From an uncultured Bacteroidales bacterium (GTDB lineage Bacteria > Bacteroidota > Bacteroidia > Bacteroidales > UBA10428), in assembly GCA_964646255.1 (NCBI GenBank), contig CAZYDI010000001.1:35213-99212 (forward strand): a stretch of DNA of 64,000 bases. Reading direction: 5' to 3'. Both the position numbers and the translations under genes were made by a program. Positions 5,501 to 55,381 of the stretch are shown here, in pieces. Under the pieces are notes generated by a model that saw only the letters and a program-made list of their open reading frames with translations, searched no databases and was not told the origin of the DNA. The first letter of the stretch is position 1; each line of letters begins with the position of its first letter.

Positions 5501-8384
5501 GTGTAACAAACGTATCAGCTTCAGCCAGGATAACACCTCCTGATGAAACAGCATACCACCTGTTGTTAGTCCCATAATTTCCGACCGCTGCGGGTATAGT
5601 CGCACTCACATTGCCGCAATGCTGTATGTCGGAAACCACAGGAACCGAAGGGATATCATGAATGGTAATATTTACCCTTCTTCTTGGACTTTCACATCCA
5701 TTGGTAAGGTTAATGGAAGAAATCCAGTAATCGGCTGCTGAGGATAAAACCGGCGTGGTAAAACTATTGCCTTCTGACAGCAGGGGCCCTCCTGAAGGGT
5801 TGTCATACCAGCGGTTAATATCACCTCCCGATCCGGTTGTTGATGTAAGTACCAGGGTTCCCGGGCCGCATCGTTCTCCATCTGCAGCAAAAGGAGCTCC
5901 GGGCATTGGTTTAAAGAGAATGCTGACTGTATCAGCGGTTGGAGGACATGAACCGCTCTCTATCCTCCATTCAAAAGTGTACAATCCTTCGTCACCTTCA
6001 TCAATCTGTGCAATTGCAGCAGATGAATGAATACCGGGTATAAATGCAACTTCACCAGGCCCGGAAATCAGACTCCAGGTCCCTGTACCACGGCCTGCAC
6101 TATTAGCCGAAAGCGTGGCCTGTGTTCCACATACACTATCGGCAGGTCCGGCATCAGCAGGAGGAACGGGCATGCCGAAATCTACCCTTACGGTGTCTGA
6201 TGTGATACAACTTGCATTTACAATGGTCCACGCGAATTCATATATTCCTGCATTTCCGGCGGCTATTTGCACGGTTGCATCAGGGTTATTTATGGAGGGG
6301 CTAAATATTGGAGGAACTGCTACCGGAGCTGATACCACGCTCCAAGTCGCTGTTCCGACTGTGGCACTGTTTGCACCGAGTGGTGAAGTAACCGAACTGC
6401 AAAGCATTTGGTCAGCTCCTGCATTTGCAGGGGCAGGAGCCTCATCACGGGTGATTGTAACAACATCACTGCTGCCGGGACAAATATTGTATTCACTGAC
6501 GGCGGTCCACCGGAATTGATTGTTGCCAAAGCCTATATTCGAAACTTCGGTGGCCGGATCATATATATCATCAATCAGCGATGTTCCTGAAATCACTGAC
6601 CAGGAACCGGTTCCGCCGTTGTCAACAGTGTCAGCAGAAAGGTTAACGGCCGAAGAATCACAAACTCCCCTGTCAGGTCCTGCGTTTGCAGGTGAAGGTA
6701 TCCGGTCTCTCAGGATTCTCACAGTATCGGTGGTGGTATTGCAAACGCCATAACGACTTCTTATCGTCCATGCAAACTGGTTTACTCCTCCTGCCAGTGA
6801 TGATACAGTGGCATGCGGATTATTGCTGTCGTTAAAGGCACCATTGCCCTGTGCTACCGTCCATGTTCCTATTCCGTTGTTGGTCACTGCCGATGCAGCA
6901 AGTATTGTGCTTGTGTTGTTGCAAAATTGCTGGTTGGGACCTGCATTGGCCGGGTCCGGCTGCTGATCGCTGGTAATAAGCACTTCATCAACCGAAATAC
7001 ACGGACCATTGGTAATGGTCCAACGGAACAGGTTCGGGCCCGGACTTAAATTGTAAACCTGGCTTTGGGGATTAAGCGGATCGTCTATGGTGGCAAGAGA
7101 TGTGGTGGTCCACCTGCCGGTCCCTATCACAGGGGTATTGCCATTCAGTGTATACTGATTATCACAAATAGCCGCATCATCTCCTGCATCCGGTGCAGGT
7201 ACCGGTATGTCGAATATCCTGAAGGATACCCTGCTCGGTGCACTTGCGCAAGCCCCTATGGTTTCGGTAACCCAGTATGAATATGTTCCTCCGGTAGTAT
7301 TATCGATATAGGTGGGAGTTCCAACCGGGTTAAAGCTGTTTCCGGTGTGAATATGGTGGGTAAGTAGGGAATCGGTGTACCAGTTTACCTGTCCTCCTGA
7401 CGTTGAAAGGGTAAGGTTAATAGGGCTTCCTGCGCAAAATTCCAGCGAAGGATTGGTGATCTCGGGCGGCGTGGTAATGATTTCTATAAGGGCAGTGGTG
7501 GTAATCGGAGGATTATCACCATTGATAAGATCAGAAGGAGGCACTGCATCAAAAGGATTCCGATCGTATGGGTTGCAGATGTTCCAGTTCCTGAGGGTGA
7601 TTTCAAAAATATCACCGGCAATCCCGCCGGCAGGAGCACTGATTGGCCAGGATATTTCAGTTGGACCATCAGCAGGGATGGGTATTTCCACTATTGGTCC
7701 CGGAACCGGCGGCAGGGAATTTCCGTCGGCATCCGTCATCTGGTAAATATTTCCCAGCGGATCCCGGATTGTAATATTGGGAATCCTGTCTCCTCCAATG
7801 CTGGTTGTACCATAAATAAACTGTACCCACCGGGTTATCCGGTTAGGCTTGTCGGGTTCAACGTTAATATTGCAGTTAAAAGTGGAATTGTCGGCAAAAA
7901 CCACATCAACAATATCCTCACCCTCGCAAAACTGGGCTACTACCGGATCAGTAATGATAACGGCGCCATTTTGATTGTCCCTGGCCCATGCACTGAATGT
8001 TTGTTCCTGGCGGCTGCTGCTCACGCACTGCTGTCCGTCGTAAACAACATAAGCCTCTGCGGTATATGAGCACTGGTCAGAAGGAGGGTAAAGGTGGGAT
8101 GCTGTAGCTGTGAAAACTGTGTCACCTTGTGAAATTGCCGGAACCTGGGTGGTAGCTCCTGTTCCATCGTTCCATACATATAATATCTCCACACGTGATG
8201 GATCAACAGGAAGTATGAATTTATACCGTACGTCCATGTTCAGGTTAACAGGGGCACAAACGCTTCCGGCTACCTGTCCGCTGTAATTGTCGGTGATCAG
8301 TGCGCACTGACCGGCAGCCTTCTGCGATAACATGGTTGCGAATAACGGAATTACGGTGAGTAGTTTTGTTAATGTGCCCCTCAT
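2595..8384 (-). CDS. giant (1929 aa) modular cell-surface adhesin with a T9SS type-B (gliding motility-associated) C-terminal sorting domain
   Basis: Signal peptide (MRGTLTKLLTVIPLFATMLSQKAAGQ). Five PKD-type W/FxFGDG motifs. Ig-like WY...GG.LL...YWVS...GCES modules. C-terminus FPNVFSPE...MIFNRWGELIFES...GWDG...DVYIWRV...GDVTLLR. Confidence 0.9.
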   Translation of the reverse strand: MRGTLTKLLTVIPLFATMLSQKAAGQCALITDNYSGQVAGSVCAPVNLNMDVRYKFILPVDPSRVEILYVWNDGTGATTQVPAISQGDTVFTATASHLYPPSDQCSYTAEAYVVYDGQQCVSSSRQEQTFSAWARDNQNGAVIITDPVVAQFCEGEDIVDVVFADNSTFNCNINVEPDKPNRITRWVQFIYGTTSIGGDRIPNITIRDPLGNIYQMTDADGNSLPPVPGPIVEIPIPADGPTEISWPISAPAGGIAGDIFEITLRNWNICNPYDRNPFDAVPPSDLINGDNPPITTTALIEIITTPPEITNPSLEFCAGSPINLTLSTSGGQVNWYTDSLLTHHIHTGNSFNPVGTPTYIDNTTGGTYSYWVTETIGACASAPSRVSFRIFDIPVPAPDAGDDAAICDNQYTLNGNTPVIGTGRWTTTSLATIDDPLNPQSQVYNLSPGPNLFRWTITNGPCISVDEVLITSDQQPDPANAGPNQQFCNNTSTILAASAVTNNGIGTWTVAQGNGAFNDSNNPHATVSSLAGGVNQFAWTIRSRYGVCNTTTDTVRILRDRIPSPANAGPDRGVCDSSAVNLSADTVDNGGTGSWSVISGTSLIDDIYDPATEVSNIGFGNNQFRWTAVSEYNICPGSSDVVTITRDEAPAPANAGADQMLCSSVTSPLGANSATVGTATWSVVSAPVAVPPIFSPSINNPDATVQIAAGNAGIYEFAWTIVNASCITSDTVRVDFGMPVPPADAGPADSVCGTQATLSANSAGRGTGTWSLISGPGEVAFIPGIHSSAAIAQIDEGDEGLYTFEWRIESGSCPPTADTVSILFKPMPGAPFAADGERCGPGTLVLTSTTGSGGDINRWYDNPSGGPLLSEGNSFTTPVLSSAADYWISSINLTNGCESPRRRVNITIHDIPSVPVVSDIQHCGNVSATIPAAVGNYGTNNRWYAVSSGGVILAEADTFVTPVLTAPVTYWVSSYNAITGCEGERVPVHVQIDIIPGTPVAYDTARCGEGALTIASTVGVNGNHNQWFDAQTGGTLLDTTASFATPYLTSTTSYWVSTINKTTGCVSPRQRVMVNIHPIPGFPVAPDVTQCGPDTVVLMASAGLNGTVTRWYDSLTGGSVLMQDEQYVTEYLTNTRRYYVSTFNESTGCESSRREVMAVILPVPSPQTIIGPEAVGINQTNVIYSVNFQPGSTYDWAIPPGMNLLLENQNFVIVEFPNIGTYNISVTETNSLGCEGPPAVKTIDVKADLIVLDITPKSGNGCINTNLQLSAVPTGGTPSYTFVWGGDVQYLNATNISNPIFNAPSEGNYMITISVNDINLNNASDTIYITVYPNPEVVITSDSLTCTGADLPLNANVSGGSGIYPQYLWSGQTTPLSDINIPNPVFNTFLKGTYHLKFSVTDNHGCMAADSVSILNDAPRAIFVSDAEPGCSPLNVHFTNNSEDAISYSWNFGDGNISAEANPVHTFSNTSNSVQYFNVQLTAVNASNCIHTTNEYIVVYPNPPLVISTFPDNACAPADILLSSTPGGLNYQWNFGDGQFADGDFNIMHTFVNDTDKDTVFLVRLVSTSFFGCVDSGQTLITVHPSPRASFTLDPSYQMIPDRTIAFTNTTEEGNWEYLWKFGDSTYSELREPLPHTYPGAGNYLIYLVVRGEHCSDSVWESAQIVPHPPIAAFMPVEPGCMPLTIQFQNTSMYSNSYLWEFGDGAVSNKPNPQYTYYEPGTYTIKLTAWGDDGSASSYSTNNDVYVLPNAFFDIKPRRVYANDQAVLFENQSDNGAYPVDGNTYLWDFGDGNGSQDVNPVHLYEEAGSYNVTLNVWTDKQCYDVYEYQAAVLVEPVGTLKFPNVFSPEASLQENRVFKPALIDFVEDYHLMIFNRWGELIFESFDKDMGWDGMINGTVAKEDVYIWRVEGKYTSGLTFEQTGDVTLLR
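2880..4133 (-). repeat. five tandem PKD domains (aa ~1418-1835)
   Basis: YSWNFGDGN..NPVHTF, YQWNFGDGQ, YLWKFGDST, YLWEFGDGA..NPQYTY and YLWDFGDGN..NPVHLY, spaced about 83 aa apart. Confidence 0.85.
4899..5897 (-). repeat. four tandem ~82-aa Ig-like modules (aa ~830-1162); a fifth diverged copy lies at aa ~310-392 (nt ~7209-7457)
   Basis: Repeated pattern C-G-x-G...RWYD...GG.LL...F.TP.L...YWVS..N..TGCES.R..V.V.I. This looks like the Ig-like domain commonly attached to CHU_C/type-B CTD proteins. Confidence 0.75.
5907..7202 (-). repeat. five tandem ~85-aa coding modules (aa ~394-826) inside the adhesin
   Basis: Each module starts P-x-P-A-[ND]-A-G-x-[DN]-x3-C, then G-x-G-x-W, then F-x-W-T-I...C...D-x-V-x-I (for example PDPANAGPNQQFC / PSPANAGPDRGVC / APANAGADQMLC / PPADAGPADSVC). 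Boundaries are approximate. Confidence 0.75.
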
Positions 8385-16317: not shown

Positions 16318-17211
16318 TTATTCCACCCCGCTTACCTTCATCTTAAAAAGGTATACCGATGTTCTCGCAGTTATAAAGAGAATATTCCGCCCGGCACCTC
16401 CAAAACAAACATTGGAAGGAGATTCAGGAACATCTATTTCGGCTATTTTTTGTCCCCCGGGGTTAATTACCAAAACCTTACCCGAGGTGAGATACACATT
16501 ACCCTTATTGTCCAGCGCCATGCCATCGGATCCGAATGGTGCAAACAGCATTTTATTGCTCAGTGTTCCATCTGCATTAATGGAATATTTCCAGGTCTTT
16601 CCGGCCCTGATATCAGCAACATACAGGTATTTTCCATCAGGGGTGCCTGCTATTCCGTTTGGTTGTTCAAGGTCGTCGATAATCCTTACTGCGTTGCCTC
16701 CCGGTGGCAGGTAATATACTCCCTGAACATCCAGTTCCTGTTTGTGGTGTGAGGGCCACCAGGGACGGTGATAATAAGGATCGGTGAAATAAATACCTCC
16801 CTTGTTGTCGACCCACAAATCGTTGGGCCCGTTAAAATGCTTGCCTGAATAATGGCTCTCATAGTAAGGTTTTACCACACCCTCAGGGGTGATGATAACA
16901 ATCCGGTTATGGAGATCTGCACAACTGTATAAAATGCCGTTGGTATCAGCATACGTTCCGTTGGACCGCTCAACATCATAAATAGTATCAATGATTCCCT
17001 GGCCCTCCTCCCAGACAAAAATCTTATCATTGGGCTGATCGGTAAAATACACTTTACCGTCGGGCAAAACCGAAGGCCCCTCGGTAAAGGAAAAACCGGT
17101 GGCCGCTTTAACCATCTTAGCATTGTCTTCAGCAATAAGGCATAAGCCTGGTTCCTGGCCCTGGCAAGTAATGCCGGCCATGAAGATAATTACCAACAGG
17201 GTAAGTTTCAT
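16318..17211 (-). CDS. SMP-30/gluconolactonase/LRE family beta-propeller protein, exported
   Basis: Signal peptide from MKLTLLVIIFMAG. FTEGPSV, GPNDLWVD, QPNGIAGTPDGKYLYVAD and PSNVCFGG motifs. Confidence 0.75.
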   Translation of the reverse strand: MKLTLLVIIFMAGITCQGQEPGLCLIAEDNAKMVKAATGFSFTEGPSVLPDGKVYFTDQPNDKIFVWEEGQGIIDTIYDVERSNGTYADTNGILYSCADLHNRIVIITPEGVVKPYYESHYSGKHFNGPNDLWVDNKGGIYFTDPYYHRPWWPSHHKQELDVQGVYYLPPGGNAVRIIDDLEQPNGIAGTPDGKYLYVADIRAGKTWKYSINADGTLSNKMLFAPFGSDGMALDNKGNVYLTSGKVLVINPGGQKIAEIDVPESPSNVCFGGAGRNILFITARTSVYLFKMKVSGVE

Positions 17212-17320
17212 TTTTTTATTACAAAAATAAACAAGAAATAGCAAAAGCCGTCGTCAATCACTATGCTTCATTTTTTATCTTTGTTTGGCTAACAACATTT
17301 CTAACTAAAATCAACATTCC

Positions 17321-47558: not shown

Positions 47559-49400
47559 TCAGTTCTCCTGAATTGTCCACGCAGGCTCCCAATCCCAATT
47601 CGACCGAAGTTGTTCAGCTTTATCGGAGACAAATACTTTTTCAGGTTGTATTTTTTTCAGGTAGTTGCCTGTATCCCATTTCCCATTGTCATTGGCATCG
47701 TAAATGGCTTTGAACATATATTTACCCGGCAACATATAGTCGAAGGTCAAAATACCATCACCCCGGGCAATGGTCGACTTTACCACCAATCCCTTTTGGT
47801 CAATGATTTGTACAATCATAGGGTATGCATAAGCGCTGAAATTGAGCAGGATTCTGCCGTAGAAGTCGGCCTGCTGGGTAACAAACTTTACCTCGATGGT
47901 ATCATTGCTGTTCCCATAGATGTCAATTGCAGCCCCGGGCTTGAATAATACGCTGTAATCCGTTGATTCTTCCCAGTCAGCCTTTATATTAAACCTTCGA
48001 TGCTGCATGGAATCCTTAACCAAATCAAACCTTTCCGGCACATAAAGCGTGTCAGAAAGTTTTTTAACAATGATGGAATCCTTGTTTAGTAACCGGATGG
48101 GTTTTCCTGTTGCAACAACCAGCATTGCGTTTAACTGCAAAACGCTTCCGCTTCTTGCACCGGGCGTTAACTGCAAACCCTTTTTTTCAACTTTTTTTAG
48201 TTCGGGTTGACCGCGCCTTCCCCCTCCGCTTCCCTTTTCGTCCCTGGCTGAGGCTGAGGCAATCCTTAACTTTACAGTATCGGTTACAGCAGCCAGGTTA
48301 CCGGTTGAATCGGTAGTTTTGTATTGCAACTTCAGATGCAGGGTATCCAGTTTGGATTTCAGTGTATCTGTTATCCAGTAACCCAAAGTATCGCCGTTTA
48401 CCGAAGGTTCCTGCAGCAACCAACCCTCATGTGCTTCAAAGTTCAGCGGTACAATATGAAGGGAATCAAAAAGCGATCTGTTAAAGGTAAAAGTAAATTT
48501 TTCCGCTGATTCCCGGGTCCTTGAGGTGATGAATACATTCTTGTTTTCTTCAGAAAAAGAGAAAAGTGAAACATTCACAGCATTCAGCACTTTACCAGGG
48601 GCAATGATGGTATCCGCTAAATTGGCCGTATCGCGCCGGCTTCCCCGCTGAACAATCCTCTCAGGGGTTATAATTTTGACGGTATCCTTAATGAACGTTT
48701 GAACTTTTACATTTTCACTGCTTATTACCAGGAGCGAATCCATAAAAGCAATGTCTTCAATTCCCGGATTGTATTTTAAGTCATTGTTGGCATCTTCCAG
48801 GGCTATGAGCCTGAATGTATCCGGATGTATATTGTTTACGGCAAAAAGTCCATAACTATTGGCTTTTCCGTAATATCGCGGGATTTCCAGAAACGGTGCT
48901 GAGTCATTCAGGTTTTCGTAAAGGAGAATGAAAACATCCTTTTTTTCTTCAGGTTTCAGGGTGAATGCATCTTTAACACTGCCTGTAACCGATAATGAAT
49001 CAATCACATCCCCTGTGGAAAACACAAACTCAAAGTCGGGTAAAGGATTTCCTTCATTCAAATCGGCAATGGCCTTCCCGAAATTTATGGTATAGGTAGT
49101 ATTGGGCAGTAGATCTTCACCAAACGTTACCCTGATTGACTTTTCCCTTACCCGCACCAAAGGCTTTTTTTTCATTGGAGGAGAAATGATAATCTCCTTG
49201 TTCTGGTCTTTTAATTGCAGGTACTCATCAAAATAAATGTCCACACGGTCGCCATTAAACCGAACCGACCTGTTCTCAGGAAAAGATGATAAATACAATG
49301 GCGGATTAACATCCTTAGGGCCGCCTGTCGGACTGCCCATTTTTGCACAACCCTGTATAAGAATCAGGATAAGAAATGTGAAATATAGTGATAGCTTCAT
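47559..49400 (-). CDS. Ig-like (SbsA/Big_5-type) domain lipoprotein
   Basis: Lipobox LIQGC. N-terminus GSPTGGPKDVNPP...FDEYLQLKD is typical of this conserved Bacteroidota lipoprotein family. Function unknown. Confidence 0.6.
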   Translation of the reverse strand: MKLSLYFTFLILILIQGCAKMGSPTGGPKDVNPPLYLSSFPENRSVRFNGDRVDIYFDEYLQLKDQNKEIIISPPMKKKPLVRVREKSIRVTFGEDLLPNTTYTINFGKAIADLNEGNPLPDFEFVFSTGDVIDSLSVTGSVKDAFTLKPEEKKDVFILLYENLNDSAPFLEIPRYYGKANSYGLFAVNNIHPDTFRLIALEDANNDLKYNPGIEDIAFMDSLLVISSENVKVQTFIKDTVKIITPERIVQRGSRRDTANLADTIIAPGKVLNAVNVSLFSFSEENKNVFITSRTRESAEKFTFTFNRSLFDSLHIVPLNFEAHEGWLLQEPSVNGDTLGYWITDTLKSKLDTLHLKLQYKTTDSTGNLAAVTDTVKLRIASASARDEKGSGGGRRGQPELKKVEKKGLQLTPGARSGSVLQLNAMLVVATGKPIRLLNKDSIIVKKLSDTLYVPERFDLVKDSMQHRRFNIKADWEESTDYSVLFKPGAAIDIYGNSNDTIEVKFVTQQADFYGRILLNFSAYAYPMIVQIIDQKGLVVKSTIARGDGILTFDYMLPGKYMFKAIYDANDNGKWDTGNYLKKIQPEKVFVSDKAEQLRSNWDWEPAWTIQEN

Positions 49401-49490: not shown

Positions 49491-50606
49491 ATGACACTGA
49501 ATTATGTGATCTGGAACGTTACCCCTCAAATTGTTGATTTTGGTAAGTTTGAAATTCGCTATTACAGCTTTTTGTTTGCCCTTGGGTTTGTGCTCGGCTA
49601 TTTTATACTGCTGAAGGTATTTAAAAAACAAGGCTTAACCATTGAATTGCTTGACCGGCTAACCATTTATATGGTAATCAGCACCATTATCGGGGCCCGT
49701 GTTGGCCATTGCCTCTTTTATGAGTTTGACTACTATATAAAACATCCGCTTGAAATAATTCTACCCTGGCGAGGCCAGCCGGGAGAGGATTTTGTGTTTA
49801 CCGGCTTTCAGGGACTGGCAAGTCATGGCGCGGCCATTGGCATAATCATTGGAATTATTCTTTTTGCCAGAAAAACCAAAACGGCTTTTTTCTGGACCAT
49901 GGACATGATTGTTATTGTTACTGCACTCGCAGGAGCATGCATCCGCATGGGCAACCTGATGAATTCCGAAATATATGGGAAACCTACCGGCACTGATAAA
50001 GGATATGTTTTTACCAACGATCTTACCACTGCATTAAAGCATAATTACACCGGCCTGATTGAGAAAATCAGCTATAAAAAGTCGGATTCAGTTAAGGTTG
50101 AAAAGGGAGTGCCGCTTACCATGGAAATAGTATTTTCAAGGAAAGTTAAGGAACAGCAAAAAGTTCAGCAGTTTGGTGACCACCTGCTGGCTGAAACATT
50201 CCAACGCTATAATTTCGATAACAATGTATTCCTGCCCCCGGGAAATGCCGTTACCTATGAAATTGAACGCCTTAATAACAGGAATTATGTCCTTACGGCT
50301 GGCATTGGCGGATTACCGAGGTATCCTACCCAGATTTATGAAGCTGCATGTTACCTGCTGATTTTTGTTGTGCTGCTGGCTTTGTTTTATTTGCTAGGAG
50401 ACAGGCGCAGGAATGGTTTTATCTTTGGTGTTTTCCTGATATTGCTTTTTACGGCAAGGTTTTTTATTGAGTTTATCAAAGAAAACCAGGAAAGTTTCGA
50501 GGAAGCCATGGCACTTAATATGGGCCAACTTCTCAGCATCCCGTTTGTTATTGCCGGTATAGCATTAATTGTCCTTAAATGGCCGGTTAAACCGGTATCA
50601 TCATGA
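49491..50606 (+). CDS. lgt: prolipoprotein diacylglyceryl transferase with an enlarged periplasmic insert
   Basis: FEIRYYSFLFALGF, GARVGHCLFYE, GLASHGAAIG, RMGNLMNSEIYG and PRYPTQIYEA. About 110 aa lie between the last two motifs. Confidence 0.85.
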   Translation: MTLNYVIWNVTPQIVDFGKFEIRYYSFLFALGFVLGYFILLKVFKKQGLTIELLDRLTIYMVISTIIGARVGHCLFYEFDYYIKHPLEIILPWRGQPGEDFVFTGFQGLASHGAAIGIIIGIILFARKTKTAFFWTMDMIVIVTALAGACIRMGNLMNSEIYGKPTGTDKGYVFTNDLTTALKHNYTGLIEKISYKKSDSVKVEKGVPLTMEIVFSRKVKEQQKVQQFGDHLLAETFQRYNFDNNVFLPPGNAVTYEIERLNNRNYVLTAGIGGLPRYPTQIYEAACYLLIFVVLLALFYLLGDRRRNGFIFGVFLILLFTARFFIEFIKENQESFEEAMALNMGQLLSIPFVIAGIALIVLKWPVKPVSS

Positions 50607-51523
50607 GTCATTCGCATCACCATAACCATCACCATCATCACGAAGCCAGCCGTCCTGAAAAGAGCCTGTTGTTTTCAACCCTCCTTAATCTTGTAGTTTC
50701 CATTGCAGAAGTAATTGGAGGACTTGTTTCAAACAGTCTCGCCCTCATCTCCGATGCACTCCATAATTTGGGCGATACCTCGGCATTATTTATTGCCTGG
50801 CTTGCCAACAGGGTAAGCCGAAGAAAGCAAAACACAAGAAAAACCTTCGGTTATAAAAGAATTGAGATTCTTGCAGCGCTGTTTAATGCCATTGTACTGG
50901 TTGTTATTATTGTTTACCTTTTTATTGAAGCATTTCAGCGACTTTCAAGCCCGGAACCAATAAAGGGACTGGTCATGTTTATTGTGGCAGTCATTGGCCT
51001 GATTGCCAATCTGACATCAGTTATTCTGTTGAGAAAATTCAAGCGCGATAACATCAACATAAGGGCTGCATATTTGCATTTACTGGGCGATACAATATCG
51101 TCAGTGATCGTAATCATCACGGCTGCGCTTATCTATTTTTACAACATATACTGGATAGATCCGCTGGTTACTTTCCTTCTTGGTATATACTTATTGAGGG
51201 AGACTTTCCTTATCCTGAAAGAAGCCCTTGATATCCTGATGCAGTTTACTCCTTCAGGTCTTGACCTGAACGATGTAAAGCTTTCACTGGAGGCCATTCC
51301 CGGAATAGAAAACATACACCACGTGCATGCCTGGAACCTGAATGACAAGGAAATCCATTTTGAATGTCATGTCGATCTTTCAAATGACATCCGCATCAGT
51401 GAAACCGAAACCATCAAGAACCTGGTGCAGAAAACACTGCTGAACAAATACAATGTAAATCACGTTACAATTCAGTATGAATACAACTGCTGCAGTGATA
51501 AAAACATTATTCACCCCGGTTGA
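50603..51523 (+). CDS. cation diffusion facilitator (CzcD/ZitB-like) transporter with a His-rich N-terminus
   Basis: MSHSHHHNHHHHHE. TM2 is SDALHNLGD and TM5 is HLLGD. Has a C-terminal cytoplasmic domain. The start overlaps the lgt stop (ATGA). Confidence 0.85.
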   Translation: MSHSHHHNHHHHHEASRPEKSLLFSTLLNLVVSIAEVIGGLVSNSLALISDALHNLGDTSALFIAWLANRVSRRKQNTRKTFGYKRIEILAALFNAIVLVVIIVYLFIEAFQRLSSPEPIKGLVMFIVAVIGLIANLTSVILLRKFKRDNINIRAAYLHLLGDTISSVIVIITAALIYFYNIYWIDPLVTFLLGIYLLRETFLILKEALDILMQFTPSGLDLNDVKLSLEAIPGIENIHHVHAWNLNDKEIHFECHVDLSNDIRISETETIKNLVQKTLLNKYNVNHVTIQYEYNCCSDKNIIHPG

Positions 51524-51541
51524 ATATTTAATTGACCTGTT

Positions 51542-51751
51542 ATGAACGAGGCTAAAATCAAAGTAAGCGGAATGAATTGCAACCATTGCAAAATCATCAT
51601 CGAAAACGGAATTTCAAAAATTCATGGAATTGAGTTAGCCACAGCCGACATTGTTAATGGTGAAGTAACAATTAAAGGTAAAGAGATCAACCTGGAGGAG
51701 GTGAAGGATACCATCGAGGATCTCGGGTATACTTACAGCGGTGAATTGTAA
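51542..51751 (+). CDS. heavy-metal-associated (CopZ-like) domain protein
   Basis: 69 aa. KVSGMNCNHCKIIIENGI (M-x-C-x-x-C). Confidence 0.75.
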   Translation: MNEAKIKVSGMNCNHCKIIIENGISKIHGIELATADIVNGEVTIKGKEINLEEVKDTIEDLGYTYSGEL

Positions 51752-51864: not shown

Positions 51865-52611
51865 ATGTATAAAATCGTTTTGCTGCGTCATGGTGAAAGC
51901 ACCTGGAATAAAGAAAACCGCTTTACCGGATGGACGGATGTTGATTTGAGTGAAAAGGGAATGGAAGAGGCCCGGAATGCCGGTAAAATTATGAAAGAAG
52001 CCGGTTATGAATTTGATGTTGCTTATGTATCTGTACTCAAACGTGCGATGAGAACCCTTTGGCTTGCACTGGAGGAAATGGATCAACTCTGGATCCCTTG
52101 GATCAAAACATGGCGCTTAAATGAACGCCATTACGGAGCTTTGCAAGGGCTGAATAAGGCTGAAACTGCTGCACTGCATGGTGATGAAAAGGTTAAGATC
52201 TGGAGACGCAGTTACGATGTACCGCCTCCCCCACTTGAAAGATCGGATCCCCGCTATCCGGGTAATCATCCCGCATATCGCAGCCTTCCTGCAAAAGACA
52301 TTCCCACTACTGAATGTCTCAAGGATACGGTTGACCGTTTTCTGCCTTATTGGCATGAAACCATTGTACCGGCCATTAAAGCAGGCAAAAGGATTATTAT
52401 TGCTGCCCACGGGAATAGCCTGCGCGCACTGGTAAAGTATCTCGACAATATGACCGAGGAAGAAGTTATCGAACTCAATATCCCTACCGGAACACCATTG
52501 GTGTATGAGCTTAACAATGAACTGAAGCCATTGAAGCATTATTACCTTGGCGATCAGGAAGCTATCAGGAAGGCTATGGATTCGGTTGCAAACCAGGGAA
52601 AGGCAAAGTAA
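51865..52611 (+). CDS. gpmA: 2,3-bisphosphoglycerate-dependent phosphoglycerate mutase
   Basis: [26 protein letters not shown] and [10 protein letters not shown]. Confidence 0.95.
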
Positions 52612-52633: not shown

Positions 52634-52663
52634 AAGGGTGTAGAGCAATCACACCCTTTTTTT
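52634..52663 (+). terminator. rho-independent terminator of gpmA
   Basis: AAGGGTGT (52634-52641) pairs with ACACCCTT (52651-52658) and runs into T7. Confidence 0.8.
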
Positions 52664-52669
52664 ATTCCC

Positions 52670-52700
52670 CGTTTACCGACCGTTAAATGACGTTTACCGA
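52670..52700 (+). promoter_or_regulatory. phased decamer repeats CGTTTACCGA / CGTTAAATGA / CGTTTACCGA; candidate LytTR-regulator binding site
   Basis: Perfect 10-bp copies at 52670-52679 and 52691-52700 (21 bp start to start), with a 7/10 copy between them. They lie 30 bp upstream of a TAnnTTTG box and 64 bp upstream of the first gene of the LiaF-like/kinase/LytTR operon. Confidence 0.45.
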
Positions 52701-52730
52701 TTTCTCTGCCTGCAGGTTATCAAATCTTCT

Positions 52731-52738
52731 TACATTTG
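52731..52738 (+). promoter_or_regulatory. candidate -7 box TACATTTG for the LiaF-like/kinase/LytTR operon
   Basis: Exact TAnnTTTG, 25 nt before the ATG at 52764. There is no -33 TTG, consistent with activator dependence. Confidence 0.4.
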
Positions 52739-52763
52739 ATCTGTTAATTAAAAACGAATTCTT

Positions 52764-53549
52764 ATGGAAGTAAATGATATGAGAGATCGCGAGAGCAAAA
52801 GACGGTTTCAACACCACAGGGTAGGCGGTTGCTGCTCATCCGACAGGCATTCTGATAAAAGACTGTGGATGGGTATTGCCATCATTTTGCTGGGAGTGGT
52901 GCTCCTGGGTAATAACCTTAATTTCCTTTCCTATGATATGCGAAGGTACCTGTTAACCTGGGAAAACATACTGATTCTGCTGGGCCTTGTTTTCTTTTTT
53001 GGAAAAGGAAACAGGACAACCGGGATCTTATTGTTCGTAATCGGTGCCATATTTTATATGAAAAACGTTCTGAACCTCATCGACTTCAATTTCTGGTCAT
53101 TGTTCTGGCCCGGCTTATTGATTCTGATGGGCATACTCATGATTTTCAGGCATCAGCTCGATGGCAGTACGGAAAAAAAAAGTACAGCAGGTAACGAAGA
53201 CATTATCGACGAAATAGCGGTATTTGGGGGCGGCGATCGCCTGGTTGCATCACAAAATTTTCAGGGTGGCAAGGTAACAACAGTTTTTGGCGGCCTTAAT
53301 TTTAATATGTTACAGGCTAAAATGGCCCCGGGTGATAATGTTTTGGATGTGTTTTGTTTGTTCGGCGGAATGAAACTAATTGTTCCCGAAGGATGGAATG
53401 TTAAAATACAGGTATTCTCACTTTTTGGCGGATTTAGCGACAAGCACCGGTTCCGGCTATCCAACAATACACCCGATCAGGGATCCCAATTGATCATTAA
53501 AGGAACCGTGTTTTTTGGCGGAGGTGAAATAAAAAGCTATTTCGACTAA
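52764..53549 (+). CDS. LiaF/YvqF-like membrane protein (cell-envelope stress module)
   Basis: Four to five TM segments, then repeated beta-strand units VFGGGDRLV / TVFGGLNFNM / CLFGGMKLIVPEGWNV / SLFGGFSD / VFFGGGEI. Confidence 0.6.
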   Translation: MEVNDMRDRESKRRFQHHRVGGCCSSDRHSDKRLWMGIAIILLGVVLLGNNLNFLSYDMRRYLLTWENILILLGLVFFFGKGNRTTGILLFVIGAIFYMKNVLNLIDFNFWSLFWPGLLILMGILMIFRHQLDGSTEKKSTAGNEDIIDEIAVFGGGDRLVASQNFQGGKVTTVFGGLNFNMLQAKMAPGDNVLDVFCLFGGMKLIVPEGWNVKIQVFSLFGGFSDKHRFRLSNNTPDQGSQLIIKGTVFFGGGEIKSYFD

Positions 53550-53572
53550 TGCTGTTGCTTATCTGACACCCT

Positions 53573-54622
53573 ATGCAAAACCCTATCCTCAACAACAGAA
53601 AAAGCCTCACCTATTACCTGACATTATGGACCATTGTTATAATTGTCCATATTGTCCTGCTCAGGATTTCTGCATCAATAACATTGGGCGCTGCGGTTGT
53701 GGATTCGCTGATTTTTAACCTGCTTTTTTCTGCCATTGGGGTGGGACTTTGGTTTCCCATATTCTTCAGCAGGTCAGAGGGTGAAAGCCTTATCAGTGTT
53801 ATCATTAACAATGTGGTAGGTGGGATCATAGCGGTTAGTTTCTGGTTGGGCATATCCTATTTTTTGCTTACCTCCCTGCTCCACAATGAACCTTCCTACC
53901 TGCAATTTTTGCAGGCATCCGTTCCATGGCGCTCCGGAATTGGCTTTCTCTATTATGAGGTTCTTATTTTGGTTTATTATCTGATCATTTATTACCGAAA
54001 CCTTGAGGAAAACAAGCTTAAAGAGGCAGAATTAAAAGCCCTGGTCAAGGAGTCTCAGCTCAATTCCCTTAAATCACAAATAAATCCGCATTTTTTGTTT
54101 AACAGCCTTAATTCCATAAGTTCCTTAACCATGATTGAACCCGGCAAGGCGCAGGAAATGATTATTAAACTATCGGAATTCCTCAGGTACACTACCTCTC
54201 AAAAAGAGGAGAAACTTACTACACTTGAGGAAGAACTAAATAATATCAACCGGTACCTGGATATCGAAAAAATAAGGTTTGGCAAACGCCTGCTTGTTAA
54301 ACAAACAATGGCAGAACCATGCCATCAGCTCAAACTCCCCGGCCTCATTCTTCAACCTTTGCTTGAAAATGCAGTGAAATACGGGGTATACGAAAGTACC
54401 GAGGAATCAACCATCGAAGTAATTTGCACTTGCAACTCCTCGGCCCTGAGCATTATAGTAAGGAATCAATGGGATCCTGATTTTCAGCTCAACAAGGGGG
54501 AGGGAATAGGCCTTAAAAACATCCGCAGCCGGCTCAGGATCATCTATAACAGGGATGACCTGTTTATTGTCCGGAAGGACCAGAAGTTTTTTGAAGTGAA
54601 TATCGTTTTTCCACAGTCTTAA
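53573..54622 (+). CDS. LytS/YehU-type sensor histidine kinase
   Basis: Multi-TM N-terminus, His_kinase motif INPHFLFNSLNSI and HATPase region LLENAVKYG...GEGIGLKN. Confidence 0.85.
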   Translation: MQNPILNNRKSLTYYLTLWTIVIIVHIVLLRISASITLGAAVVDSLIFNLLFSAIGVGLWFPIFFSRSEGESLISVIINNVVGGIIAVSFWLGISYFLLTSLLHNEPSYLQFLQASVPWRSGIGFLYYEVLILVYYLIIYYRNLEENKLKEAELKALVKESQLNSLKSQINPHFLFNSLNSISSLTMIEPGKAQEMIIKLSEFLRYTTSQKEEKLTTLEEELNNINRYLDIEKIRFGKRLLVKQTMAEPCHQLKLPGLILQPLLENAVKYGVYESTEESTIEVICTCNSSALSIIVRNQWDPDFQLNKGEGIGLKNIRSRLRIIYNRDDLFIVRKDQKFFEVNIVFPQS

Positions 54623-54628
54623 ACATCT

Positions 54629-55381
54629 ATGCATATGAATGCGGTAAATGCCCTGATCATTGACGACGAACAACTGGCAAGAGAACTGATTAAAAATTAC
54701 CTGAAAGACTTTCCCCAGGTTAATATTGTAGGGGAATGCGAAAATGGCTTCGACGGGGTGCTTCAAATAGGCCAGTTAAAACCCGATTTGGTATTTCTGG
54801 ATATTCAAATGCCAAAGCTGAATGGATTCGAAATGCTCGAGATTATTGAAAATCCGCCTGAAATTATTTTTATCACCGCGCACAATGAGCATGCAATAAA
54901 GGCTTTTGAAATGAATGCAATTGATTACCTGCTCAAGCCCTATTCGCGTGAACGCCTTCATGCTGCCGTGAAAAAAGCCATCGACAAAATCAAGGCTCCG
55001 GGACCAAGGGAGAGCAGGATTAACCAGTTGCTCCAGCAAACACCTTCCGAAAAGCTCGAAAGAATTGTAGTGAAAACAGGATCCAAAATAAAGGTTATTC
55101 CCGTGGATAAAATAAACTACCTCGAAGCCCAGGATGATTATATTATGATATATACCGATGAGGGAAAACACCTGAAACAGGGAACAATGAAATACTATGA
55201 AGATCATCTCGATAATACCAGGTTCATCAGGGTCCACCGGTCATATATCGTAAAAATGGACCAGGTGGTTCAGCTTGAACCTTATGCAAGGGATAATTAC
55301 GTTATTAAACTGAAAAACGGAACTGCTTTGAAAATCAGCAGAAGCGGCCTGAAGAATCTGAAAGACAAATTTAATTTCTAG
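54629..55381 (+). CDS. LytR/AlgR family response regulator (receiver + LytTR DNA-binding domain)
   Basis: LIIDDE, DLVFLDIQMPKLNG and the LytTR part IPVDKINYLEAQDDYIMIYT...FIRVHRSYIV. Confidence 0.9.
   Translation: MHMNAVNALIIDDEQLARELIKNYLKDFPQVNIVGECENGFDGVLQIGQLKPDLVFLDIQMPKLNGFEMLEIIENPPEIIFITAHNEHAIKAFEMNAIDYLLKPYSRERLHAAVKKAIDKIKAPGPRESRINQLLQQTPSEKLERIVVKTGSKIKVIPVDKINYLEAQDDYIMIYTDEGKHLKQGTMKYYEDHLDNTRFIRVHRSYIVKMDQVVQLEPYARDNYVIKLKNGTALKISRSGLKNLKDKFNF

Follow-up and report, generated by a model that had tools for sequence, protein, structure and literature searches.

A LiaF-like/LytTR two-component operon with a candidate autoregulatory direct-repeat operator in an uncultured Bacteroidales bacterium

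In the LiaFSR system of Bacillus subtilis and the VraTSR system of Staphylococcus aureus, the gene for a protein with a LiaI-LiaF-TM membrane domain and a beta-rich C-domain shares its operon with genes for a response regulator and for a kinase without an external sensor domain; these operons are autoregulated, and their targets include LiaI-like or PspC/PspA-type membrane proteins (PMC11237479). LytTR regulatory systems (LRS), represented by HdrRM and BrsRM of Streptococcus mutans and by LRS-like operons of Bacteroides, combine a LytTR regulator with a DUF2154 membrane protein (HdrM and the Bacteroides proteins), and they carry two autoregulatory direct repeats just upstream of the promoter, Bacteroides included, where the operon starts with the membrane-protein gene and has a TAnnTTTG-type promoter (PMC6193735). 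More generally, the sites bound by LytTR regulators consist of two direct repeats of 9-11 nt that lie 11-13 nt apart (PMC4847170). Here we describe a locus with features of both kinds of system, in a stretch of 64,000 nucleotides (hereafter the window) of contig CAZYDI010000001.1 from an uncultured Bacteroidales bacterium (GCA_964646255.1). The locus encodes a LiaF-like membrane protein, a PF06580 histidine kinase and a REC-LytTR response regulator behind a pair of direct repeats, and it is probably a three-gene two-component envelope-stress operon that is positively autoregulated by its own LytTR regulator at two phased sites.

Candidate operator and its conservation

The features of the operator, promoter and operon are as follows, all on the forward strand:

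52672-52680, forward strand: distal half-site TTTACCGAC; family consensus TTYACCGAT; approximately -71 to -63 from the predicted start
52681-52692, forward strand: spacer between the half-sites, containing CGTTAAATGA; unconserved, 0.0-0.5 bits per position
52693-52703, forward strand: proximal half-site TTTACCGATTT; consensus TTTACCGAtTt; approximately -50 to -40 from the predicted start
52708-52711, forward strand: -33 promoter position; GCCT in the window, TTTn or TTCn in most orthologues
52731-52738, forward strand: Bacteroidota sigma-A -7 box TACATTTG (TAnnTTTG, perfect), 30 bp after the second CGTTTACCGA
52764-53549, forward strand: LiaF-like membrane protein gene, 261 aa, with its ATG at 52764
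53573-54622, forward strand: histidine kinase gene, 349 aa
54629-55381, forward strand: response regulator gene, 250 aa

A repeat search placed copies of the 10-mer CGTTTACCGA at 52670-52679 and at 52691-52700, their starts being 21 bp apart; the two copies are separated by a C at 52680 and the decamer CGTTAAATGA (52681-52690). The initial annotation had proposed three abutting decamers, and for these the coordinates and the two perfect copies 21 bp apart stand, whereas the strict abutting does not, given the single base C52680 between the first two. There are also only two sites, not three, the middle decamer being unconserved spacer (<0.5 bit). The reading of the 21-bp register as LytTR-like is borne out: the candidate operator, TTYACCGAT(N12)TTTACCGAT, located 30 bp before the -7 box, has the repeat length and spacing published for LytTR sites (PMC4847170), and it is arranged like the autoregulatory repeats of LytTR systems, those of Bacteroides included (PMC6193735).

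Taken by itself, the window provides no grounds for singling out this repeat. When direct repeats that are exact over 10 nt or more and spaced 11-40 are counted, the window has five, compared with 2.2 ± 1.4 (maximum 5) expected from first-order Markov simulations, and significance judged from the window alone was therefore rejected; because this count is within chance, the significance of the repeat derives from conservation at orthologous loci. To obtain these, the LiaF-like protein was used as query, yielding 782 relatives with E ≤ 1e-5; at least 493 encoded relatives were confirmed by a profile scan that took one genome per species, and the best 80 of these were kept as loci. Almost all of these 80 loci come from uncultured Bacteroidales/Bacteroidota, and their LiaF-like proteins share 36-70% identity with the query. 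Kinase and regulator orthologues follow the LiaF-like gene on the same strand in approximately 70 of the 80 loci; judged by gene order, the LiaF-like/PF06580 kinase/REC-LytTR trio is a conserved unit.

Two TTTACCGA-like cores spaced at exactly 21 bp are present in 69 of 81 regions upstream of the LiaF-like gene. When both strands of the loci and the window (1.3 Mb) were considered, a spacing of 21 accounted for 66 core pairs, and every other spacing from 10 to 40 for 0-7 each. The presence of the repeats upstream of orthologous operons had been named beforehand as the refuting test for the operator, and we scored it as the pattern TTYACCGA-N13-TTYACCGA (21-bp register) with a weight matrix derived solely from the repeats. 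The operator passed this test: the pair is present (score ≥15) in 71 of the 73 LiaF-like loci that have a kinase or regulator; the two exceptions are a degenerate TACACCGT-N13-TTTACCGA in L059 (score 10.3) and a pair with 22-bp spacing in L067. None of the seven LiaF-like paralogues without a detected downstream kinase or regulator carries the pair (scores of -7.8 to -20.6), four of these seven having enough downstream sequence for the absence of both genes to be certain, and the score never exceeded 8.9 in 230 control windows from the same loci.

An ungapped alignment of 69 sites has the consensus TTtACCGAT-N12-TTTACCGAtTt, with 1-2 bits per position in the cores (1.1-2.0 in the distal one) and less than 0.5 bit in the spacer. 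ACCG is near-invariant in the distal core, CCGA is invariant in the proximal core (69/69 sites), and TAnnTTT[G/A] occurs exactly 30 bp past the proximal core in 67 of the 69. The base that precedes the core varies (A34/G19/T14/C2), which disposes of the AgrA-like CGTT/GTT core initially proposed: neither the leading CG nor the G before TTTACC is conserved, the conserved bases being TTYACCGAT. Two loci, L025 (2184-2233) and L200 (496-545), have three or more TTTACCGA units in 21-bp register inside a TTGCCGATTGCCG-type tandem repeat, so that operator copy number differs between species.

The near-chance count of short-range 10-mer repeats in the window is what would favor an origin of the pair as a chance duplication, or as part of the gpmA 3' end, without any regulatory role. 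We regard this explanation as extremely improbable, and it is refuted by the comparative data: the repeat is kept across genomes with LiaF-like proteins that are only 38-70% identical, its spacing and its promoter distance stay constant although the spacer varies freely, and it persists where gpmA is not adjacent, gpmA being the upstream neighbor in closer relatives only.

The exact -7 box that the initial annotation had placed 30 bp downstream of the repeats is confirmed (TACATTTG, 52731-52738). Because the TAnnTTTG box of Bacteroidota sigma-A promoters spans -12 to -5 (PMC9723704), transcription is predicted to start near 52743, leaving a leader of approximately 21 nt. Relative to this predicted start, the proximal core would occupy -50 to -43 and the distal core -71 to -64, and both cores would lie on one face of the helix, separated by two turns, and immediately upstream of the -33 position, which is the usual place for an activator. 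No TTG was found around the -33 position of the window promoter, as had been annotated; this is not a family trait, in that most orthologues keep TTT or TTC at that position, 20 bp before the -7 box. The orthologous promoters, with a TTY at -33 and a perfect -7 box, might work without an activator, and the cognate regulator bound to the repeats would then repress, or merely fine-tune, a constitutive promoter. We consider this very unlikely, given that the sites (approximately -71 to -43) lie wholly upstream of -33 without overlapping the core promoter, that the -33 element is absent in the window, and that characterized LytTR regulators with sites in such a position activate transcription (PMC4847170; PMC6193735).

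Sensor proteins and the proposed circuit

The annotation of the first gene as LiaF/YvqF-like with five FGG units, followed by a PF06580 kinase and a LytTR regulator, is matched by Pfam domains. The LiaF-like protein scores 58.7 bits against LiaF-TM and 49.3 bits against LiaI-LiaF-like_TM1 (cut-off of 27 for each), and many of its homologues carry a precomputed PF09922 match. The five FGG units, identified by alignment, belong to the C-terminal beta domain, and an AlphaFold2 model of the protein consists of four long helices followed by 10 strands (mean pLDDT, a per-residue confidence score, of 71.7; approximately 85 for the beta domain). A profile search of the PDB with this protein found nothing. 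A Cys/His-rich N-terminal tail precedes the first helix (52764-52870), reading GGCCSSDRHSD in the window, with counterparts PCCDDHQHHDH, SCHEHSHRD and CCDKRHYD in closer relatives; from its composition, this tail could be metal- or redox-sensitive. Both characterized relatives of the LiaF-like protein inhibit signaling, with LiaF acting on LiaS, and HdrM (DUF2154) on the LytTR regulator HdrR (PMC6193735; PMC11237479). By analogy with LiaF and HdrM, the LiaF-like protein may gate the kinase, or possibly the regulator.

The kinase has His_kinase PF06580 as its sole significant domain (101 bits; cut-off 25.2); 5TM-LYT and GAF were not matched in Pfam, even at E-values up to 10, and no sensor domain was recognized. 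Its layout comprises approximately four hydrophobic segments with short loops (read by eye from the sequence), a coiled linker, and the PF06580 phosphoacceptor domain, in which His173 (NPHFLFNSLN) is conserved in 18/18 aligned orthologues. An N-box at 265 (LLENAVKYG) and a G2 box at 309 (GEGIGL) are likewise conserved in the 18 aligned orthologues. The kinase family has a conserved RNx[WYF]DP approximately eight residues before GxGxGL, where DxGxG is expected, which suggests a very short ATP lid. In its short loops and lack of a sensor module, the kinase is like those that rely on an accessory membrane protein.

The response regulator matches Response_reg at 89.3 bits (cut-off 30.2) and LytTR at 90.4 bits (cut-off 22.6), and the receiver residues for phosphotransfer are all present: D12 and D13 (IIDDE), D58 (FLDIQMP), T83 (FITAH), and K103 (LLKP). 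Its top named families are BtsR and LytR, with scores below the NCBIfam equivalog cut-offs (195.3 vs. 246 and 145.7 vs. 375, respectively), and it is therefore not classed as a BtsR or LytR equivalog.

The sequence features, the domains, and the conservation of the operator with its spacing and position are observed; which protein binds the operator, whether it activates or represses, what the LiaF-like protein does, and what the stimulus is are inferred, and the circuit that we propose on this basis is as follows. Lacking a sizeable extracytoplasmic loop, the kinase probably could not sense the exterior alone, and would be gated by the co-encoded LiaF-like protein. Upon perturbation of the membrane or cell wall, the kinase would phosphorylate the REC-LytTR regulator at Asp58, and two regulator molecules would bind head-to-tail on TTTACCGA(N13)TTTACCGA, centered at approximately -67 and -46, upstream of the -33 position. 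The bound regulator would recruit sigma-A RNA polymerase to a promoter that, in the window genome, has a perfect -7 box and no -33 element. Expression of all three genes would rise, that of the presumed inhibitor included; with the LiaF-like gene as the first gene of an autoregulated operon, the circuit would have built-in negative feedback.

Candidate regulon and flanking genes

A scan of public metagenome contigs for TTYACCGA-N13-TTYACCGA-N30-TAnnTTTG returned at least 120 stretches with 121 sites. Among the matches listed, 88 are followed first by a LiaF-like gene, often with the kinase and regulator genes behind it where the contig allows, and approximately 23 have other downstream genes with no kinase or regulator nearby. 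By Pfam assignment, these other genes encode a PspC-LiaF-TM fusion (in many cases with a gene for a LiaF-TM plus beta-domain protein of approximately 300 aa next in line), LemA, LiaI-like proteins with LiaF-TM only, HlyD + ABC + FtsX/MacB sets, and TolC-type OEP proteins, one of them behind a TetR gene. A few further downstream genes encode MarR, an outer-membrane beta-barrel protein, and small secreted proteins, and another encodes a dioxygenase-like protein beside a paralogous kinase/regulator pair. The target set hints at an envelope-stress role, in that it strongly recalls Lia/Psp envelope-stress regulons together with antimicrobial efflux, and it thereby lends support to the envelope-stress sensor proposed in the initial annotation.

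Several arrangements behind the operator recur. A two-gene unit is found in eight loci (L118, L120, L136, L137, L144, L150, L169, and L191), its first gene encoding a protein of 177 aa that has a LiaF-like C domain (28 bits vs. a cut-off of 29) behind two hydrophobic segments at the N-terminus, and its second a 741-aa transporter of the amino-acid-permease family with a long C-terminal extension. In L179, two divergent operator-plus-promoter units approximately 900 bp apart, at 7284-7350 (reverse strand) and 8248-8314 (forward strand), drive an ABC exporter of 604 aa and an MFS pump, respectively; between the units lies an open reading frame (ORF) of 260 aa, and no kinase or regulator is within reach. 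In L086, L087, and L178, the operator is followed first by a small LiaF-TM-only (LiaI-like) gene and then by the LiaF-like gene; L112, L125, L135, L141, and L189 carry a tandem duplication of the LiaF-like gene in front of the kinase and regulator genes.

These targets raise the possibility, which we put forward tentatively and at somewhat less than even confidence, that many Bacteroidota run a Lia/Psp-like envelope-stress response through a LiaF-gated LytTR two-component system, and not through LiaRS or extracytoplasmic function (ECF) sigma factors alone, with TTYACCGA-N13-TTYACCGA located 30 bp before TAnnTTTG defining the regulon. If so, the regulon would comprise the sensor operon, PspC/LiaF-TM, LiaI-like and LemA proteins, and MacAB-, TolC-, ABC-, and MFS-type exporters, as well as the small LiaF-C proteins coupled to an amino-acid-permease-family transporter.

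Several observations weigh against an autoregulated envelope-stress operon. Among the proteins, the C-domain of the LiaF-like protein remains sub-threshold (Pfam LiaF-like_C, 25 vs. 29; NCBIfam LiaF_C_term, 23 vs. 57); a Foldseek comparison of its model with the PDB gave no significant match, the Toastrack exemplar 4qrk ranking second at an E-value of 0.35; and the ATP-binding domain of the kinase is weakly recognizable (HATPase_c_5, 13.8 bits vs. 22), with no DxGxG (G1) box. On the DNA side, the metagenome pattern contained the promoter, so the fixed geometry of those matches is by construction, and a second operator was not found within the 64-kb window, so that the idea of a regulon rests on other organisms. 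The operator also precedes operons without a linked kinase or regulator, and in one case it occurs near a paralogous kinase/regulator pair that is only approximately 31% identical (L082, L103, and L105); the binder could be a paralogue or a shared master regulator.

On that alternative, the operator would be genuine but bound by another LytTR regulator, paralogue or master, that co-ordinates the locus with the PspC, LiaI-like and efflux operons, the regulator of the locus acting elsewhere or only sharing the site. It would accommodate both the approximately 20 listed metagenome operons that have the operator and promoter without an adjacent kinase or regulator, and the position of the operator beside the paralogous pair, which is convergent. 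We consider it unlikely: the repeats accompany 71 of the 73 linked LiaF-like genes and none of the seven unlinked paralogues, and LytTR systems as a rule autoregulate through direct repeats (PMC6193735). Positive autoregulation by the co-encoded regulator is the reading that we prefer.

Two further candidates within the window were rejected as second operators. The triple TTTACCGA / TTGCCCGA / TTTACCGA at 17039-17088 (reverse strand) is located inside an ORF (16318-17244, reverse strand) and has no -7 box after it; with its 21-nt spacing it encodes FTE...LPD...YFTD, a protein motif repeated every seven codons, and the resemblance is probably a coincidence of that repeated motif. A lone exact 10-mer at 48395 is inside an ORF (47559-49400).

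The three genes of the operon are tightly packed, with gaps of 23 bp and 6 bp. Upstream of the operator lies gpmA (51865-52611), the terminator of which marks the upstream limit of the regulatory region:

52634-52665, forward strand: intrinsic terminator of gpmA; 8-bp stem AAGGGTGT/ACACCCTT (52634-52658) with a 9-nt loop, then a T-run

This hairpin is missing from a simple terminator scan, its loop being longer than 8 nt, and is shown by the repeat search and by reading of the sequence. Directly upstream of gpmA, two ORFs (50603-51751) encode a membrane protein with a His-rich N-terminus (MSHSHHHNHHHHHE) and a 69-aa product with a GMNCNHC motif; the pair look like a metal-efflux protein and a metal chaperone. 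At the other end of the operon, the regulator gene and the convergent holB gene (DNA_pol3_delta2) share 11 bp at their 3' ends (55371-55381), the regulator stop included, and no terminator-like hairpin was found between the two genes.

Comparison with known systems

The locus differs from LiaFSR and VraTSR in that its kinase is of the PF06580 (LytS/BtsS) type, not the LiaS type with HAMP, and in that its output is LytTR, not the helix-turn-helix of LiaR; because both the kinase and regulator types differ, the locus is not a member of LiaFSR. The LiaR operator is an inverted repeat. The operator of the locus is a direct repeat in 21-bp register, and the host is a Gram-negative member of the Bacteroidales. 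The LiaR output has been labeled differently, as NarL-type in the initial annotation and as REC-wHTH in the literature (PMC11237479).

LytTR regulatory systems have no kinase, and their regulators have no receiver domain (PMC6193735), in contrast to the full phosphorelay encoded here; because a kinase and receiver domain are present, the locus is not a LytTR regulatory system sensu Zou et al. (2018) (PMC6193735). LRS-like operons in Bacteroides differ in detail as well, with transmembrane segments in the regulators, an NfeD-like domain in the membrane proteins, and repeats of the TCCGGTATTCA type (11 bp + 11 bp, 22-bp register) followed 11 bp downstream by a promoter that reads TGTA-19 bp-TATCTTTG (PMC6193735).

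On the output side, BtsS/BtsR (YehU/YehT), YpdA/YpdB, and LytS/LytR share with the locus a PF06580 kinase and a REC-LytTR regulator. The kinase of the locus differs in lacking 5TM-LYT and GAF; the named systems respond to pyruvate or membrane potential and do so without a LiaF-like protein. AgrC/AgrA likewise includes a LytTR activator with paired direct repeats upstream of the promoter, as proposed for the locus. AgrA sites of 9 bp with a 12-bp spacing give a 21-bp register, the figure used in the initial annotation, and this agrees with the general LytTR range (PMC4847170). Unlike the AgrA system, the locus conserves TTYACCGAT and not a GTT-containing motif, and it has no peptide-pheromone locus. 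YpdB binds a direct repeat of GGCATTTCAT (PMC4847170). By our own reading, the BtsR (YehT) oligonucleotide printed in the same paper contains, at a distance of 21 bp, ACCGCTTA and ACCACTCA, which have an ACC core in common with TTTACCGA; we take this as a resemblance only.

The literature that we searched contains no description of the three-gene module, operator, or candidate regulon in Bacteroidota, the closest accounts being those of LytTR regulatory systems and of Toastrack neighborhoods (PMC6193735; PMC11237479), nor does it contain work on envelope stress in Bacteroidota that concerns a LiaF-like/LytTR system. There is precedent in Firmicutes, where HdrRM pairs a LytTR regulator with a DUF2154 protein (PMC6193735) and neighborhoods with a LytTR gene followed by a LiaI-LiaF-TM plus Toastrack gene are recorded for Clostridium botulinum and Lactobacillus acidophilus; a LiaI-LiaF-TM+Toastrack, HISKIN, REC+wHTH series is listed for Ignavibacterium in a supplementary table of the same work (PMC11237479).

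The locus offers a testable circuit made up of a sensor module, a defined 29-bp candidate operator whose position is fixed, and a candidate regulon that comprises exporters and proteins protecting the membrane; the operator consensus could be used for annotating Bacteroidota regulons and for building stress-responsive reporters. After the LiaS/LiaR phosphorelay and the kinase-less LytTR systems, a full LytS-family/LytTR phosphorelay would represent a third kind of output for a LiaF-type accessory protein, which fits the view of LiaF-like proteins as portable membrane-stress input modules. By analogy, the locus would work like LiaFSR/VraTSR on the input side and like BtsSR, YpdAB, and AgrCA on the output side. 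The wiring of a LiaF-like protein to a LytS/LytTR pair, which is kept in approximately 70 of the 80 loci and is unlike that of LiaS/LiaR, was correctly recognized in the initial annotation; the pairing is not without precedent, and the locus is a variant of LiaF-like/LytTR pairings already known in Firmicutes.

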